From contig JBEQAY010000004.1 in the NCBI GenBank assembly GCA_041640075.1, positions 1 to 56,250 on the forward strand: DNA of 56,250 bases, given 5' to 3'. The notes under the pieces are model-generated. The model had not been told where the DNA came from, did not search any database, and saw only the letters and a list, made by a program, of their open reading frames with translations. This document shows, piece after piece, positions 2,452 through 8,390 of this stretch. Origin of the DNA: Candidatus Nanohaloarchaea archaeon. GTDB lineage: Archaea > Nanohalarchaeota > Nanosalinia > Nanosalinales > Nanosalinaceae. A program made the position numbers and the translations under genes. Positions within the stretch are counted from its first letter, which is position 1; each line of letters begins with the position of its first letter.

Positions 2452-2733
2452 CTAGTTTCTCCATGTTATGTATCCGAGTATAACCAGTGAGGCTGTTTCC
2501 AGGCTTCTGAGTATCAATCCTTGTTGTGCAACTTTTTCAGCGTACAGCCCCATCATCGTCCAGTTAAAGTAGAAGGCAAGTACGTTTTCCAGGAGGAGGA
2601 TTGATGCGAATATCAGCAGACCCAGTGAGAACTTCGAGTTCAGTTTCTGGTAGTTCTGGGCGTACACATATATAAGGGAAACCAGTATCAGGGCGTTGAG
2701 TCCCGAGAGAACTAGTGACGTTTCGGTAATCAT
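2452..2733 (-). CDS. Small 3-TM membrane protein co-transcribed with the wHTH regulator
   Basis: Three hydrophobic helices; starts 6 nt after the regulator's stop. Confidence 0.75.
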   Translation of the reverse strand: MITETSLVLSGLNALILVSLIYVYAQNYQKLNSKFSLGLLIFASILLLENVLAFYFNWTMMGLYAEKVAQQGLILRSLETASLVILGYITWRN

Positions 2734-2739
2734 GGTTTA

Positions 2740-3033
2740 CTAGTTGCCTCCGTTCTGTTTATCTATCTTTTCCCAGATATCATCGAAAACCTGTATTTCG
2801 TTCTCAAGCCTATCTGATATACTGTACATCTTGCCGTAGTCTTCTTCACCAGCCTCCACGAGGCCGTTGTCTTCAAGTTTTCTGAGGTGGTACGTGACGG
2901 TTTTGTAGTCTAGATTCAGGTTTTCCGAGAGCTGGTTAGGGTTGAATGGTCGTTCCCTGAGTTCGTTGATTATCTTGGCACGTGTCTCTCCTCCTTTCGT
3001 ACCCCCTATAAGGTGCCAGAGAAGAGATTTCAT
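2740..3033 (-). CDS. ArsR-like winged-helix transcriptional regulator
   Basis: GTKGGETRAKII...PFNPNQLSENLNLDYKTVTYHLRKLEDNGLV is a typical archaeal ArsR/HTH. Start at MKSLLW (3033) preferred. Confidence 0.88.
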   Translation of the reverse strand: MKSLLWHLIGGTKGGETRAKIINELRERPFNPNQLSENLNLDYKTVTYHLRKLEDNGLVEAGEEDYGKMYSISDRLENEIQVFDDIWEKIDKQNGGN

Positions 3034-3144
3034 GTCCGTGCCAAAGGTCATGTCGAAAACAGTAAGTCGCAGGATTAAAAATTATGTATTAGAGCATTAT
3101 CCTGAGAAGGCTGGTGACTGCGTTGCAATTTTTCAGTTGGAATC

Positions 3145-3165
3145 AATTTGGGAAACAATCTGGAA
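3145..3165 (+). promoter_or_regulatory. Putative operator (tandem TGG[A/G]A half-sites) upstream of the redox operon
   Basis: aatttgggaaacaatctggaa, 17/21 identical to 6614..6634; a TATA-like ctttat follows about 26 nt before the ATG at 3205. Confidence 0.55.
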
Positions 3166-3204
3166 TTGGTTAAAAACCCTTTATCGCATTAGTAATGGAT
3201 AGTT

Positions 3205-3489
3205 ATGATTGAAGAGCTTAAGAAGAACAAGTTTTTGTTGGCAGTGCTGCTAGTAGTAGGTATAGGTGGCGTAGTTTTTGCGGCTATCCAGACAGACCTG
3301 ATTGATTCAGTGACTGGAGAAGAACCACAGGATCATTCTGGCGAAGCTATGGAGGCCGGAGAGGCCATGAAAGCCCAGGATGATCTAGGTGAAGAGTCAA
3401 CAGACTCAGATTCCATGGACTCTGGAGGCTCCATGAATGACTCCGTGGATTCAAATGACTCGATGAACGATTCAATGTCGGAGCAGTGA
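3205..3489 (+). CDS. Membrane-anchored Met/Ser/Asp-rich small protein
   Basis: Basic N-terminus and one TM helix, then a low-complexity acidic tail with six Met in EAM/DSM/GSM repeats. Confidence 0.8.
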   Translation: MIEELKKNKFLLAVLLVVGIGGVVFAAIQTDLIDSVTGEEPQDHSGEAMEAGEAMKAQDDLGEESTDSDSMDSGGSMNDSVDSNDSMNDSMSEQ

Positions 3490-3496
3490 TTCAATA

Positions 3497-4201
3497 ATGG
3501 CGGCAGAACCTACCCTGGTATTTTCCTTCTTTGCAGGGCTTCTTTCCTTTTTATCGCCCTGTATGCTGCCTGTAATACCAGCATTCATCGCACACATGGC
3601 AGGAGCCAATCTTGAAGATAACTTTAACAGGAGGAAAGTGTTCCTGACTGCTCTGCTTTTCGTAACAGGGTTTTCGGTGGTCTTCGGGATACTGGGTGTC
3701 CTTCTTAACTCATTCCTCGAATCAGCGAGTACACAGATACTTCACTACCTCTCGATCTTCGCTGGAGGCCTGATAATATTCTTCGGTGCACACCTGACAG
3801 GGATAATAAGCATACCAAACCTTGACAGGGAGCACAAGCTTGGACTGGAAGACAAGCTTGGATCAGGCTATATTTCATCCTTCATACTTGGAGCAGCCTT
3901 CGCCGTAGGCTGGACACCTTGCGTGGGACCTATCCTTGGAAGCGTCTTCGCACTGGCATCTACGAGCCCTGGTTCGGCGTTCTTCCTGCTCCTGGCTTAC
4001 TCTATAGGACTTGGAGCGCCGTTCCTGTTGATAGGTGCTTTCCCTAACAGGTTCAGAGAGTACATCATGCAGAGGATGGACAAGGTTTCAAAGGTCAGGA
4101 CAGTCTTTGGTTACATAATGATCCTGATGGGGGTACTGATCGCGACACAAAATCTTTCACTGCTGGCCAGCTTCGGAATACTGAATGAGGTGCTGCTATG
4201 A
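3497..4201 (+). CDS. ccdA: CcdA/DsbD transmembrane electron transporter
   Basis: AGLLSFLSPCMLP and GWTPCVGPILG motifs; about 6 TM. Confidence 0.93.
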   Translation: MAAEPTLVFSFFAGLLSFLSPCMLPVIPAFIAHMAGANLEDNFNRRKVFLTALLFVTGFSVVFGILGVLLNSFLESASTQILHYLSIFAGGLIIFFGAHLTGIISIPNLDREHKLGLEDKLGSGYISSFILGAAFAVGWTPCVGPILGSVFALASTSPGSAFFLLLAYSIGLGAPFLLIGAFPNRFREYIMQRMDKVSKVRTVFGYIMILMGVLIATQNLSLLASFGILNEVLL

Positions 4202-5316
4202 ATATCGAGGTAGAAAAACCCTATCAGTTCGCCGTGCTAATGCTACTGGTCGCAGGAGCAATAGGATTCAGCCTGGTAAACACTCCTGAAGGAGCAAATA
4301 CTGAAGGTATAGATGTCATGAACGAGACAGAGGCTGTCGAAATGAAGCAGGAAGAGTTCCAGAGGGCGAAACCTCTGGTTAATCCTACAGGTTACATCAA
4401 CACCGACAACGTCTCGATAGAGGAGAACATCGGAGAGAAAGTTATACTGCTTGATATGTGGACCTATAGCTGTATAAACTGTCAGAGAACATTTCCACAT
4501 CTGAAAGAGTGGAACAGGAAGTATAGGGACGACGGACTGCTTATCATAGGAAACCATGGACCAGAGTTTGAATTCGAGAAGAAGAGATCCAACGTCGAGG
4601 ACGCGGTCGAAAAATACAACCTGACCTACCCCATTGTCCTCGACAACAACTACGGAACCTGGAACGCCTACAACAATCGTTACTGGCCCCAGAAATACCT
4701 GATAGGGGTTGACGGATTCATCAGATACGAGCACATTGGAGAAGGAAGATACGAGCAGACAGAGGAGAAGATAAGAGAGCTGCTCAAGGAACTGAAGATG
4801 CGGAATGGACAGGATCCAACACTGACCGATGAGATAGGTCAGAGTCCGGAGGAAGAGCAGCTTGACTCGACAGACGTGAACTCCGACATGATCAAGACAC
4901 CTGAAATATACCTGGGGACCTACAGGAATGATTACCTGGCCAACGGGCGGAACGGCACGAAAGGGACTCAGAACCTCACTGTCCCAGAAGAATTGGAAAA
5001 GAACAATCTTTATCTGGGTGGAGAATGGAACTTTGAGGAAGAATACGCTGAAAACAGTGGTTCGGGAGAGATACTGTTGAGATACGAGGCGAAGAGAGTC
5101 AACATGGTGCTGGAAGGAGATAACACAACAATCAAGGTATACCAGGACGGAGAACTGGTATCAGAATCCGCAGGAAGAAATGTGGAAAACGGAAGAGTTA
5201 AAGTCGGAGACGAACAGCTGTACAACCTGGTGGCGAACAACGAGTATGGCGAACATAGATTGAGGATCAAGGTTGAAAACGGCGCCCTGAAAGCCTATAC
5301 ATTCACATTCGGATAG
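4198..5316 (+). CDS. Membrane-anchored thioredoxin, DipZ C-terminal type
   Basis: N-terminal TM; WTYSCINC active site; HGPEFEFEK and NRYWP motifs; C-terminal TPEIYLG...AYTFTFG domain as in DipZ. Confidence 0.88.
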   Translation: MNIEVEKPYQFAVLMLLVAGAIGFSLVNTPEGANTEGIDVMNETEAVEMKQEEFQRAKPLVNPTGYINTDNVSIEENIGEKVILLDMWTYSCINCQRTFPHLKEWNRKYRDDGLLIIGNHGPEFEFEKKRSNVEDAVEKYNLTYPIVLDNNYGTWNAYNNRYWPQKYLIGVDGFIRYEHIGEGRYEQTEEKIRELLKELKMRNGQDPTLTDEIGQSPEEEQLDSTDVNSDMIKTPEIYLGTYRNDYLANGRNGTKGTQNLTVPEELEKNNLYLGGEWNFEEEYAENSGSGEILLRYEAKRVNMVLEGDNTTIKVYQDGELVSESAGRNVENGRVKVGDEQLYNLVANNEYGEHRLRIKVENGALKAYTFTFG

Positions 5317-5340
5317 AAAAGAGAAATGAGGAGATGAGAT

Positions 5341-5880
5341 ATGAAAACTAAAGATTTCGACCGAAAAACGTATATACTGGCAGGTTCAGCTCTGGCGCTG
5401 GCCATTTTCGTAGCTTTTGGAGCAACTCAAAACGCTAGAACTACAGGAGCAGTCAATTCATCGGCCTGGCAGGAAGTGGAGCTCCAGGACGTGAACTCTG
5501 GTGACTCATTCACTGTAACAGAGCTTGAGAAGCCTCTTCTTGTTGAAACGTTTGCTGTCTGGTGTCCGACCTGTACAAACCAGCAGAACGAGATAAAGAA
5601 ACTGAAAGAAGATTCCAACGTAACTTCAGTTTCTCTAGACGTCGATTCCAATGAAGACGAGCAACAGATCAGCCGACACACGGAGGAAAACGGTTTCGAC
5701 TGGCGCTACGCCATCTCGCCGCCTGAACTGACACGTATGCTGATCCAGGAGTACGGTAACTCCATCGCGAATCCTCCTTCAGCACCGGTAGTGCTTGTTT
5801 GTGAAAACAGCAGCAGAAGGCTTTCAAACGGTGTGAAAACAGCTTCCACACTCCAACAGGAGATACAGGAGGGTTGCTGA
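5341..5880 (+). CDS. Membrane-anchored thioredoxin-fold (TlpA-like) protein
   Basis: N-terminal TM; FAVWCPTC motif; two further C-terminal Cys. Confidence 0.85.
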   Translation: MKTKDFDRKTYILAGSALALAIFVAFGATQNARTTGAVNSSAWQEVELQDVNSGDSFTVTELEKPLLVETFAVWCPTCTNQQNEIKKLKEDSNVTSVSLDVDSNEDEQQISRHTEENGFDWRYAISPPELTRMLIQEYGNSIANPPSAPVVLVCENSSRRLSNGVKTASTLQQEIQEGC

Positions 5881-6555
5881 ATGGTACTCGGAGAGCTGTC
5901 AACATCGTTTCTTCTTGGACTTGCTACGCCTCTGACAGCTCTCTGCGTGATACCTCTTTATCCCAGCTTTATCTCATACCTTTCAAAACAGCTTGACGGA
6001 GATACTGATCAGAAGACGTACCTTTTCTTTGGTTTGCTGGTTGTGGCGGGAGTCATTAGCTTCATGCTGGCACTTGGACTGGTTTTCTCCACTCTGCTTC
6101 AGGCATCGCTTACAAGCGTGATCGAGATAGTTTCACCGGTAGCCTTTGCCGTCTTAGGTTTGATGGGTATCGCCATGATGCTGGACCTAGATTTCCAGAG
6201 CTACCTGCCCTCGAAGAGGACTCCGGAGTTCGAGAATCCGCTTGTGAACGCCTACGGCTTCGGTTTCTTCTTCGGCGCCATAATCATCCCCTGCAACCCT
6301 GCGTTCATCGCAACTTTCTTTGCAAGAGCGTTCCTGTTCGAAACACCTGTTACAAGCTTCCTGAACTTCATGTCGTTCGGACTCGGTATAGGCTTCCCGT
6401 TGCTGGCTTTCTCCGTGATTTCACAGTCAAAGAGCCAGGAAGTAATCAAAACACTCCAGAAACACTCATCGATAATACACAGAGGGTCAGGCCTTGTCAT
6501 GATGGTTATATCACTTTACTACCTGATCAAGGTCTTCAACGTACTGACTATCTAG
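5881..6555 (+). CDS. Second, divergent CcdA-family membrane protein
   Basis: PLTALCVIPLYP and AIIIPCNP Cys motifs; about 6 TM; GLGIGFPLL. Confidence 0.82.
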   Translation: MVLGELSTSFLLGLATPLTALCVIPLYPSFISYLSKQLDGDTDQKTYLFFGLLVVAGVISFMLALGLVFSTLLQASLTSVIEIVSPVAFAVLGLMGIAMMLDLDFQSYLPSKRTPEFENPLVNAYGFGFFFGAIIIPCNPAFIATFFARAFLFETPVTSFLNFMSFGLGIGFPLLAFSVISQSKSQEVIKTLQKHSSIIHRGSGLVMMVISLYYLIKVFNVLTI

Positions 6556-6613
6556 AATCAGGAGGTTGAAATCAACTAGATGATCAAAAACCATGACAGA
6601 TCGCAGGTTCCTG

Positions 6614-6634
6614 AATCTGGGAGAGATTCTGGAA
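6614..6634 (+). promoter_or_regulatory. Putative operator upstream of msrB-msrA
   Basis: aatctgggagagattctggaa, followed by a TATA-like ttttat at 6640; matches 3145..3165 at 17/21 positions. Confidence 0.55.
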
Positions 6635-6668
6635 AGCGGTTTTATGCAAAGACGAGGAACATAGTACT

Positions 6669-7280
6669 ATGAATTACAGGGCTAAACTGGAGGATAAACG
6701 AGTACTTGCAGTCCTCGGTTTCGTTTTTTCAGGTCTGCTCCTTGCAGCGATTTCTGTATCAATCTCCGGACAGTTCATGGCTTCAGATGATGAAAAAACC
6801 GGGGAGGTCCCGGAAAGCAAGGAAGAGTACAGCCAGGAGATCTCACAGTTAACGGAGATGGAGTACTATGTTACACAGCAGAACGGGACGGAACCGGCAT
6901 TTGAAAACCAGTACTACGATCACAAGCAGCCAGGTATCTATGTGGATGCCGTGAGCGGAGAGCCACTTTTTTCCAGCAAGCACAAGTACGACTCCGGCAC
7001 CGGTTGGCCAGCCTTCTATAAACCACTGGAGCCTGAGAATTTGATCATAAGAGAAGATAGAGGGCCGCTGGGTGTCAGAACCGAGGTGGCAAGCAAGGAC
7101 GCAAGAAGTCATCTGGGCCACATCTTCCAGGACGGACCGGAGGATAAAACCGGTTTGAGGTACTGTATAAACAGCGCAGCCCTTGAATTCATCCCTGCAG
7201 AAGACCTAGAGGAGAAGGGATACGCTGAGTACAGCTTGATGTTTGAAACCGAAAACTCGACTCAGGGTGGCGACCAGTGA
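6669..7280 (+). CDS. msrB: Peptide methionine-R-sulfoxide reductase with N-terminal membrane anchor
   Basis: GTEPAF, KYDSGTGWPAF, SHLGHIF and RYCINSAAL motifs; no Zn CxxC pairs; N-terminal TM. Confidence 0.95.
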   Translation: MNYRAKLEDKRVLAVLGFVFSGLLLAAISVSISGQFMASDDEKTGEVPESKEEYSQEISQLTEMEYYVTQQNGTEPAFENQYYDHKQPGIYVDAVSGEPLFSSKHKYDSGTGWPAFYKPLEPENLIIREDRGPLGVRTEVASKDARSHLGHIFQDGPEDKTGLRYCINSAALEFIPAEDLEEKGYAEYSLMFETENSTQGGDQ

Positions 7281-7981
7281 AGGATAGAAACTTCAGGATT
7301 GGCATGGCACTCATAGTCTTCGGATTTGCTGGTGCAGCAGTCCAATTCGGTTATCTGGAGATCCCTTTATCGGGTGTAACCTCTCAGCAACCTGTGAATA
7401 CTGATTCGGGAGTCCAGGAATCCTGGAAACAGAATATAACGAATCAGACGCCTGTAAACGCAACCTTTGCGGGAGGGTGCTTCTGGTGCATAGAGGGAGC
7501 ATACATGGGTGTTGAAGGAGTAGAGGCCGCGATCAGTGGCTACGCAGGTGGCAGAGAATCCACGGCCACGTATGACCAGGTTACCACGGGAGAGACAGAT
7601 CACAGGGAAGCAGTCAGGGTCAGGTACTATCCTTCAATCATTTCCTATCAGGAACTGCTGGAGATATATTGGAAAAGCATCGATCCTACAGATCCCGGCG
7701 GCCAGTTCTCGGACAGAGGACCACAGTACACTACAGCGATCTATCCTCACAACGATGAGCAATATAGGCTCTCAAGGGAATCCAAGCAGAATCTCTCCCA
7801 GTCAGGGAAGTTTGAGGAACCGATTGTAACGGAGATAGAGAACTACACTGCTTTCTTCCGTGCAGAAGACTACCATCAGAACTACTCGAAGAAGAACACT
7901 GCACAGTACAAGGCCTACGAAAGAGCATCCGGAAGGAAAGGATACGTGGAGAAAGTCTGGGACGACAGCCCTCTGACGTAA
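7277..7981 (+). CDS. msrA: Peptide methionine-S-sulfoxide reductase with N-terminal membrane anchor
   Basis: FAGGCFWC, GYAGG, GQFSDRGPQY and AEDYHQNY motifs; GTG start overlaps the msrB stop. Confidence 0.95.
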   Translation: MKDRNFRIGMALIVFGFAGAAVQFGYLEIPLSGVTSQQPVNTDSGVQESWKQNITNQTPVNATFAGGCFWCIEGAYMGVEGVEAAISGYAGGRESTATYDQVTTGETDHREAVRVRYYPSIISYQELLEIYWKSIDPTDPGGQFSDRGPQYTTAIYPHNDEQYRLSRESKQNLSQSGKFEEPIVTEIENYTAFFRAEDYHQNYSKKNTAQYKAYERASGRKGYVEKVWDDSPLT

Positions 7982-8000: not shown

Positions 8001-8390
8001 TTAAGCACTCTTCAACTCTATCTTGTACCCGAAAGGATCTCTGATGTAGACGCCGGGCCCTCTACCTGTAGCGCCGAGAGGATGCCCCTCTCTCAGGATT
8101 TCAATATTATTTTCCTCTAAAATCTCTTTCACGTCGTCAATTTTTTCGTTTAGGGTTACGCAGAAGTGATCAAAACTTTTTCCTGAAGGCCTCTGGAAAT
8201 TTTCCTTCGGCCGGATGTTGATGACTGCTTCTTCGCTTATCCTGAAGAAAAACGAGGTCCGCTCACCGTTCTGAAATTCTTCCAGCTTCATAGGTTCGAA
8301 GCCGAGAACTCGCTGGTAAAAATTTACAGCTTCATCAATTCCTTCTTCTGGTATCCTGATGTTGATGTGATCGATACCTTCCCCTTTCAT
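8001..8390 (-). CDS. VOC/glyoxalase family protein
   Basis: IDHINI, FYQRVLGF, DHFCV and YIRDPFGYKIEL motifs. Confidence 0.9.
   Translation of the reverse strand: MKGEGIDHINIRIPEEGIDEAVNFYQRVLGFEPMKLEEFQNGERTSFFFRISEEAVINIRPKENFQRPSGKSFDHFCVTLNEKIDDVKEILEENNIEILREGHPLGATGRGPGVYIRDPFGYKIELKSA

Follow-up and report, generated by a model that had tools for sequence, protein, structure and literature searches.

The window, the whole stretch of DNA analysed here (56,250 nucleotides), is contig C4 of the 0.98 Mb, 89% complete genome of a Candidatus Nanohaloarchaea archaeon (G000), and between positions 2452 and 7981 it carries a block of nine genes whose products are predicted to form a surface relay for the repair of oxidised methionine. 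A preliminary description had listed these nine open reading frames (ORFs) and named their families; the ORF list and the Pfam and NCBIfam profile searches by which we assigned families bear out both, and the nanohaloarchaeal origin it proposed agrees with the nearest source-named relatives of the window proteins, which belong to Ca. Nanosalina and other nanohaloarchaea. On the minus strand, a gene for a small membrane protein with three transmembrane (TM) segments and the domain of unknown function DUF8036 (PF26119; 2452-2733) is followed by one for a cysteine-free, ArsR-type winged helix-turn-helix (wHTH) protein (2740-3051; HTH_5, E 4.5e-11), of which the former is likely the partner or sensor. 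On the plus strand, an operator-like direct repeat (3145-3165) and a TATA-like element (TTAAAAA at 3170) precede genes for a 94-residue peptide with an N-terminal hydrophobic segment and an acidic, Ser/Met-enriched tail (3205-3489), the transmembrane electron carrier CcdA1 (3497-4201; DsbD_TM, E 7.6e-18; Cys22, Cys142), a DipZ-like thioredoxin with a CINC motif, a ResA-like domain, a Thioredoxin_10 domain and 6 N-glycosylation sequons (4198-5316), the TlpA/ResA-fold thioredoxin Trx2 (5341-5880; WCPTC, with a second Cys pair, C154 and C179) and a divergent CcdA, CcdA2 (5881-6555; Cys22, Cys138). A second copy of the repeat (6614-6634) lies before another TATA-like element (TTTTATG at 6640) and the genes for two exported or anchored methionine sulfoxide reductases (Msr) on the same strand, MsrB (6669-7280; SelR, E 5.8e-45; TIGR00357 above its cut-off; C166) and MsrA (7277-7981; PMSR, E 6.7e-56; TIGR00401 above its cut-off; 6 sequons).

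The block lies between rplP0 and rpl12. The identical nine-gene set occupies the identical site in the related genome G056, and the site holds different genes in G060. Because it is empty in two further genomes of the genus, G057 and G058, the block is a real insertion, so that the earlier term "island" was apt and its coordinates are those of the insert. Base composition gives no sign of recent transfer, the G+C content at third codon positions of the island genes (0.48-0.59) lying between the genome median of 0.48 and the 95th percentile of 0.59. Gaps between genes measure -4 to 24 nt inside each unit, with a 4-nt overlap between the CcdA1 and DipZ-like genes and a gap of 0 nt between those of Trx2 and CcdA2, and rise to 113 nt ahead of msrB, a pattern that fits two transcripts; a sigma-70 promoter scan, a type unsuited to archaea, came out near chance (10 vs 6.8 +/- 2.7), and no RNA holder is on record for this part of the window. 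The regulator genes had been called a divergent pair; they are divergent from the remaining genes but tandem with respect to each other, and in another relative, G028, the pair is co-directional. We refer to the wHTH, DUF8036, peptide, CcdA1 and DipZ-like genes as module A, and to Trx2-CcdA2 with MsrB/MsrA as module B.

The catalytic residues of all six enzymes are intact. Both CcdA proteins have six hydrophobic segments and two membrane cysteines, and C22 and C138/C142 are invariant in 16/16 aligned sequences, with CcdA2 only about 18-24% identical to the CcdA1 type. The DipZ-like protein matches the full Thioredoxin_10 profile (PF17991, E 9.4e-31). The AlphaFold model of Trx2 (pLDDT 85.9) has Foldseek matches that include ResA, StoA, TlpA and DsbE/F types, and its second Cys pair, invariant among orthologues, likely forms a structural disulfide. 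MsrA carries the motif GCFWC (Cys68/Cys71) and no C-terminal Cys. As MsrB has a single Cys (C166, in an RYC motif), no zinc site and a Thr at the usual resolving position (GTGWP), it should need a partner thiol for resolution, following the mechanism set out in a 2018 review (PMC6211008; this and the other papers are cited from the available part of their text). When 60 MsrA domains (12 anchored, 4 cytoplasmic, 3 metagenomic and 41 of 80 collection-scan loci) are placed in a tree, the anchored nanohaloarchaeal proteins make up one side of a branch with support 100/100, among mostly bacterial sequences, many of them with N-terminal hydrophobic segments, and apart from the cytoplasmic copies; the MsrA of metagenomic locus L245 is their weakly supported sister (91/74), and we claim no donor lineage. 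A scan of named genomes for MsrA, covering 5/64 collection parts and so too small to speak on absence in other archaea, yielded among its best 80 loci 79 bacterial and one from Thorarchaeota, of which none has a CcdA or Trx2 neighbour.

Several features suggest that the reductase and thioredoxin domains face outward. Hydrophobic segments were called with a Kyte-Doolittle scan, and topology was otherwise judged from charge and sequons. A single hydrophobic segment stands at the N-terminus of all four soluble enzymes and of the peptide; its N side is more positive than its C side in 5/5 window proteins, and the segment recurs in the orthologues examined (MsrA 12/13, MsrB 11/11, Trx2 16/16, DipZ-like 5/5). 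These had been described as TM anchors; a single segment is indeed present on each protein, but hydropathy tools do not tell an anchor from a cleaved signal peptide, and it may be either. Sequons occupy 20/61 Asn (33%) in the five ectodomains versus 805/7442 (11%) in ORFs without TM segments (Fisher p 4e-6), and 354/1319 Asn in other single-anchor proteins of the genome. Anchored MsrA proteins carry them on 62/105 Asn versus 0/17 in four cytoplasmic MsrA, and anchored MsrB on 38/114 versus 0/7 in cytoplasmic MsrB. The genome also encodes an STT3/AglB protein and, on contig C6, separate MsrA and MsrB proteins that lack hydrophobic segments. Some Trx2 orthologues have a lipobox (L082, Methanolobus P0160), and a permissive lipobox pattern, for which there is no control set, matches 66/80 metagenomic Trx2 orthologues (the best 80 of 257 loci); the G000 proteins have no Cys in their N-terminal regions and hence no lipobox on the thioredoxins. 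Hydrophobic segments, charge bias, sequons and catalytic cysteines thus speak for the outward-facing CcdA-thioredoxin-MsrA/MsrB relay of the preliminary description, and an outward orientation is likely.

On this evidence we propose that the inserted two-promoter cluster encodes an outward-facing reducing relay, in which electrons supplied by a cytoplasmic thiol donor would pass through the two CcdA carriers to the two exported thioredoxins, these would recycle exported MsrA and MsrB, and the reductases would in turn reduce methionine sulfoxides in surface proteins. The wHTH protein would control both modules, probably gated by its membrane partner, and the peptide may act as a recyclable oxidant sink. 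It is probable that the locus works in this way, like the surface methionine-repair pathway of streptococci.

The dedicated regulator that the preliminary description had proposed finds support in an operator-like motif shared by the two promoter regions. AATYTGGGA-N4/5-TCTGGAA has exactly two matches at 0-1 mismatch in G000, at 3145 before the peptide gene and at 6614 before msrB. The peptide-gene repeat is conserved in G056 and G028; G056 has both sites, at matching positions, and G028 the peptide-gene site only. A matrix trained on the peptide-gene sites of G056 and G028 alone, without that of G000, was used to score 1,956,484 positions: the msrB site of G000 ranked first (29.6 bits) and its peptide-gene site second (23.5 bits), the next real site in the genome reached 21.0 bits, and the top score per shuffled genome (10 in all) was 16.7-21.0. 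With a five-site matrix, none of 11 module-B regions from other genomes scored above 14.8. The wHTH protein likely binds this motif and, because the same repeat precedes both TATA boxes, likely controls both modules; since it has no cysteine, its signal likely arrives through the membrane partner. Archaeal activators bind just upstream of the transcription factor B recognition element (BRE) and TATA box. As the repeat ends 4-5 nt before the TATA box, we lean, by a narrow measure, towards activation.

This regulator is not confined to the island. DUF8036, precomputed as PF26119 on the window protein and 38/38 homologues (atlas score 0.96), adjoins a wHTH gene in 3/3 haloarchaeal plasmid matches, and the wHTH protein has close orthologues in G056 and G028 and paralogues of ~40-47% identity in 12 other genomes. 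In nanohaloarchaea, the place of the partner at paralogous loci is taken by a membrane protein of 129 residues. A half-site matrix built from the five island sites, with its threshold at the 95th percentile of 400 random windows, was exceeded in 11/17 loci around other wHTH genes of the family, 14 nanohaloarchaeal and 3 on Halobacteria plasmids (p 1.6e-7, for loci that are not independent); it missed L172, L174, L176, L186, L166 and L167. Two predicted sites on plasmid L168, from Haladaptatus, lie ahead of a ferritin-like gene and a DUF4397 gene. A complex prediction for the wHTH and DUF8036 proteins scored 0.00, which is no evidence either way. Together, the evidence points to an envelope regulator family of archaea that is so far undescribed; we found no description of DUF8036 or of such a wHTH/membrane-protein regulator in the literature, with most subscription papers outside the scope of the search. 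A bolder proposal, which we hold only tentatively and consider rather unlikely in full, is that the pair is an envelope-sensing analogue of bacterial extracytoplasmic function (ECF) sigma/anti-sigma systems. It would recognise direct repeats of 11-12 bp, made of GAATTTGGG units, immediately before BRE/TATA and activate genes for exported proteins across Nanohaloarchaeota and Halobacteria. In the Nanosalina-like lineage it would have captured the surface MsrA and MsrB genes by operator gain, and a DPANN symbiont would thus have acquired an inducible, MrpX-like oxidant sponge and a repair relay that runs without thioredoxin reductase.

The peptide behind the first repeat belongs to no Pfam, NCBIfam or atlas family. 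It had been called Met-rich, and it is enriched relative to the proteome, if only moderately, with 6 internal Met in 93 residues (6.5% vs 2.1%), which places it fifth among some 1066 roughly called ORFs. Orthologues have 14 internal Met in 106 residues (13%; G028) and 8 in 90 (P0040), and in G056 the gene is frameshifted in the assembly, with a Met-bearing tail in another frame. Within the ectodomain, 6/64 residues are Met in G000 (p 0.002) and 11/77 in G028 (p 6e-7). The persistence of this enrichment in a divergent acidic tail fits the concept of MrpX, an unconserved, charged, Met-bearing peptide that is a bacterial precedent for the sacrificial role put forward in the preliminary description (PMC4436054), and we give a role as recyclable oxidant sink slightly less than an even chance. 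A metal-binding or structural role, which concerns the peptide alone, is about as likely: it would then be a copper binder or an acidic, glycosylated tether and not a sacrificial substrate. Only two Met positions, one of them the start, are invariant among four orthologues, three of which have His near Met, the tail bears three NDS sequons, and in G028 the peptide travels with CcdA1 and the DipZ-like protein rather than with Msr; against such a role stand the persistent enrichment and the lack of any copper gene in the island. Elsewhere in G000, the most Met-rich ORF (8.6%; C21:12232-12762) has an N-terminal hydrophobic segment and adjoins a heavy-metal P-type ATPase-like gene; it is probably copper-related and unlinked to the island.

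The two modules differ in distribution. In a survey of 70 genomes of the phylum, many of them incomplete and with kin that are not independent, 18 carry anchored-type MsrA (E below 1e-55), 14 anchored-type MsrB, 20 a Trx2 orthologue and 18 DUF3179; an orthologue of DUF8036, and likewise module A, is found in only 3, a full-length DipZ-like protein adjoining CcdA1 in 5, and the complete nine-gene form in 2. Trx2 is present in 16/18 genomes with anchored-type MsrA versus 4/52 without. The co-occurrence in other genomes on which the preliminary description made its proposal depend was found: in 11 genomes other than G000, an anchored Msr gene is the neighbour of Trx2 or CcdA2. Gene order varies among them, and DUF3179 frequently accompanies these genes, as does a membrane protein with a thioredoxin-like domain at its end. 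The preliminary picture of a single unit gives way to a composite, assembled from a patchily widespread module B and a rare module A. In a metagenomic scan for Trx2 by alignment (best 80 of 257 loci analysed, 28 of these at least 6 kb), CcdA2 adjoins Trx2 in 67/80 loci and in 26/28 of the longer ones. Two of the metagenomic loci tie relay parts together independently of the island: in L229 a DUF3179-MsrA-MsrB fusion comes after Trx2-CcdA2, and in L245 the order is Trx2-CcdA2-MsrA-DUF3179-CcdA1-DipZ. These and L263 look DPANN-like, judging from gene content. A scan with a single Methanolobus Trx2 query gave no match in the metagenomes, where the alignment query did match, and Trx2 had no match in plasmids.

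A number of observations weigh against the proposed relay. In G028 the wHTH-DUF8036-peptide-CcdA1-DipZ locus is separate from a Trx2-CcdA2-MsrA locus, so that module A is unlinked from Msr, and G013 and G008 have CcdA1-DipZ without Msr. Among the best 80 of 257 loci outside the phylum, Trx2-CcdA2 has DUF3179 as a neighbour in 50 and Msr in 3 (24 and 3, respectively, among the 28 loci of at least 6 kb), and one of the three Msr-bearing loci carries a cytoplasmic-type MsrBA. Sequons in the Trx2 family, on 29/132 Asn, are not above shifted-position controls (19-20%). The repeat motif was first spotted by eye in aligned upstream regions of the peptide gene, and the related genomes are not independent. 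Finally, thioredoxin reductase (TrxB), which belongs to the textbook TrxA/TrxB electron source, was not found in G000, at 89% completeness, by family or with a relative's protein, nor in 4/5 congeners, including the single-contig, 95%-complete G058.

The last point bears on the source of electrons. In the genus (g1, with G000, G056, G057, G058 and G060), TrxB was not found in 5/6 genomes, and 52/70 genomes of the phylum have one. The system had been described as self-contained, which it is not, because CcdA needs a cytoplasmic donor and this is encoded outside the island. As TrxB was not found, we infer that CcdA would be fed by TrxA, which is encoded on contig C10, or by a glutaredoxin, via a class-I flavoprotein disulfide reductase encoded elsewhere. 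A candidate for the latter lies on C12 (NF004946, 631.8 bits vs a cut-off of 634), where its gene adjoins one for an HxlR/RrpB-like regulator; among 32 fetched module-B regions, an orthologue of the flavoprotein reductase is present in 7 and an HxlR-type gene in 5.

The prominence of DUF3179 raises an alternative in which the pairs of CcdA and thioredoxin work chiefly for other clients in the envelope, either in disulfide isomerisation opposite DsbA/DsbB or for DUF3179-type proteins, with MsrA and MsrB as co-regulated passengers recycled by small thiols or by one pair only. Because DUF3179 dominates the Trx2-CcdA2 neighbourhoods outside the phylum, Msr may be a secondary client, and the conserved core there is Trx2-CcdA2-DUF3179 with Msr added. 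Trx2 is also present in 15/18 DUF3179-bearing genomes of the phylum, G000 has two DsbB genes, and L263 joins G008, G013 and G028 in having CcdA1-DipZ without Msr. We nonetheless think this alternative improbable for the island: a search of G000 did not find DUF3179, which leaves Msr as the only evident client, nature has joined DUF3179, MsrA and MsrB in the L229 fusion, and the same operator-like repeat stands before both transcription units.

Still less likely is that the relay mainly serves as an electron sink, by which a fermenter would dump NAD(P)H electrons on external sulfoxides such as free methionine sulfoxide (MetO), dimethyl sulfoxide (DMSO) or oxidised host proteins. Nanohaloarchaea have been described as fermenters without respiratory complexes (PMC10266531), and free MetO and DMSO can be reduced by MsrA (PMC6211008), but the patchy presence (18/70 genomes) and the stress-type neighbours (the HxlR/RrpB-like genes of 5/32 module-B regions) fit defence better. 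That the enzymes are tethered to the membrane and face the cytoplasm has a very small chance of being correct; the topology does rest on hydropathy, charge and sequons, but the charge bias, the sequon excess, the lipobox-bearing Trx2 orthologues and the likely structural Cys pair, together with the existence of cytoplasmic Msr paralogues and the pairing with CcdA, all argue for the outer side. A role for the CcdA and ResA-like pairs in cytochrome c maturation can be practically dismissed, since the best score of the DipZ-like thioredoxin domain is indeed to ResA (E 4e-16, below the cut-off) but G000 has no PF01578 match or cytochrome c assembly family and its 3 CxxCH ORFs lack a hydrophobic export segment.

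Module-B regions of other genomes have features of their own. In 8/8 split DUF3179 genes checked, located after Trx2-CcdA2 in L195, L202, L203, L210, L221, L243, L252 and L255, an in-frame TGA stands at the first Cys of the CPLC motif with ~200 open codons beyond; we read it as selenocysteine, matching the listing of DUF3179 as a UxxC/T selenoprotein family (PMC9312934). The L229 fusion (L229:8127-10151) has a lipobox-like N-terminus, and its Trx2 a Met-rich acidic linker. The island of G000 has no gene for the uncharacterised membrane protein with the thioredoxin-like domain (C-terminal, CxxC), which in other nanohaloarchaea is encoded between CcdA2 and Msr/DUF3179 (L031:2283-3095, L033:2082-2780, L036:4563-5402, L037:422-1258, L039:10912-11751, L071:5440-6285), and in five genomes a glycoside hydrolase (GH15) gene directly adjoins module B (L031:4300-6222, L033:4099-6036, L036:6648-8579, L039:5505-7430, L070:3452-5377). 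Besides the full island, G056 has on its contig C7 (L070) the frameshifted remains of a second module B (GH15, Trx2 pieces, membrane-thioredoxin, DUF3179). By eye, a palindrome, TWAC-N6-8-GKTA, lies upstream of DUF3179, msrA or Trx2 in L031, L036, L037, L039, L070-L072 and L081, in several cases near a gene for an HxlR/RrpB-like regulator with a WCP motif; a pattern with 41 matches in G000 recovered it only in part, so that it was set aside, and module B may originally have been controlled through it. Next to the island itself, a glyoxalase/VOC gene at the right edge (8001-8390) is also present at the empty site of G058 and so lies outside the insert, and a 245-residue gene of no clear family (1704-2441), on the opposite strand within the rplP0-rpl12 ribosomal cluster, is kept at that position in 5/5 scorable congeners and has a paralogue on C23.

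The preliminary description had also regarded the system as unreported in DPANN archaea, which, as far as our searches reach, holds for the relay but not for its reductases. We found no description of a CcdA-Msr relay in DPANN or other archaea in the literature, again with most subscription papers outside scope, and none in the available text of PMC3322552 and PMC13444090. Archaeal MsrA and MsrB homologues with TM helices or Sec/Tat signals are already in the 2018 review (PMC6211008), the supplement of which counts Msr homologues for Nanohaloarchaeota; its main text has 0 mentions of CcdA, DsbD or "extracytoplasmic" and describes no relay, gene cluster or regulator. The available main texts of two papers on nanohaloarchaea (PMC10266531, PMC7443923; supplements outside scope) list Msr and Trx genes without mentioning a relay. 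Nanohaloarchaea live as fermenters on aerobic hosts in high-chloride, high-light brines, and the available text of these papers places Msr under general redox homeostasis and does not take up how the surface proteins with which they attach to the host are protected. A surface Msr relay fed by CcdA would fill that gap and widen the range of a pathway of bacterial pathogens to include DPANN archaea. Pathways of this type are known; the novelty lies in the archaeal host, in the regulator family and its motif, and in the absence of a recognised TrxB. The regulator is the more testable gain, as envelope-stress signalling in haloarchaea is poorly known and the presence of a predicted wHTH/DUF8036 operator on a Haladaptatus plasmid makes the family testable in tractable haloarchaea. 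The missing TrxB raises the question of which cytoplasmic donor the genus uses.

Among known systems, mycobacterial DipZ has CcdA fused N-terminally to thioredoxin and Thioredoxin_10 in one chain and belongs to the SigK/RskA regulon, whose regulator has a membrane partner. The island likewise places CcdA, thioredoxin and Thioredoxin_10 under a regulator with a membrane partner, but its CcdA1 is a separate gene and its regulator is of a different family. Azospira suillum encodes a sacrificial peptide, MrpX, with YedY and SigF/NrsF (PMC4436054). Like MrpX, the island peptide is small, charged, poorly conserved and Met-bearing, if only moderately enriched, and is predicted to be exported; its gene is the first behind a regulator pair with a membrane partner, and a methionine sulfoxide reductase is linked. 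Unlike those of A. suillum, the island reductases are thiol-dependent MsrA and MsrB that would be fed by CcdA, in place of the molybdoenzyme YedY/MsrP, there is no ECF sigma factor in the island, and Met makes up only 6-13% of the peptide; YedY/MsrP and SigF/NrsF are not among the island genes, and MsrP was not sought elsewhere in G000. Fusobacterium nucleatum, an oxidant-exposed anaerobe, has an msrAB-trx-ccdA locus with the ModRS two-component regulator (PMC9239216), which resembles the island in combining Msr, thioredoxin and CcdA with a dedicated regulator pair in one locus; the island regulator, however, is a Cys-free wHTH protein with DUF8036 and a direct-repeat site.

The closest parallel is with streptococci. 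Streptococcus gordonii uses two CcdA proteins, two thioredoxin-like lipoproteins (SdbB/Sgo_1177) and MsrAB, as shown biochemically (PMC7034828), and Streptococcus pneumoniae has the equivalent set CcdA1/2, Etrx1/2 and MsrAB2 (PMC3914529). The island has the same complement of two CcdAs, two putatively exported TlpA/ResA-type thioredoxins, putatively exported MsrA and MsrB, and separate cytoplasmic Msr enzymes. It differs in that its MsrA and MsrB are unfused, either protein having an N-terminal hydrophobic segment and sequons of its own, and that its thioredoxins have no lipobox, one of them being DipZ-like and the other having an extra Cys pair; its host is an archaeon, the sequences of its two CcdAs lie far apart, and no TrxB was found. 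Fused and lipobox-bearing forms do occur among relatives of the island proteins, but not in G000. The island lies outside the strict fused-MsrAB, lipoprotein form of the pathway: it is specific to its lineage and joins two modules behind the same predicted operator.

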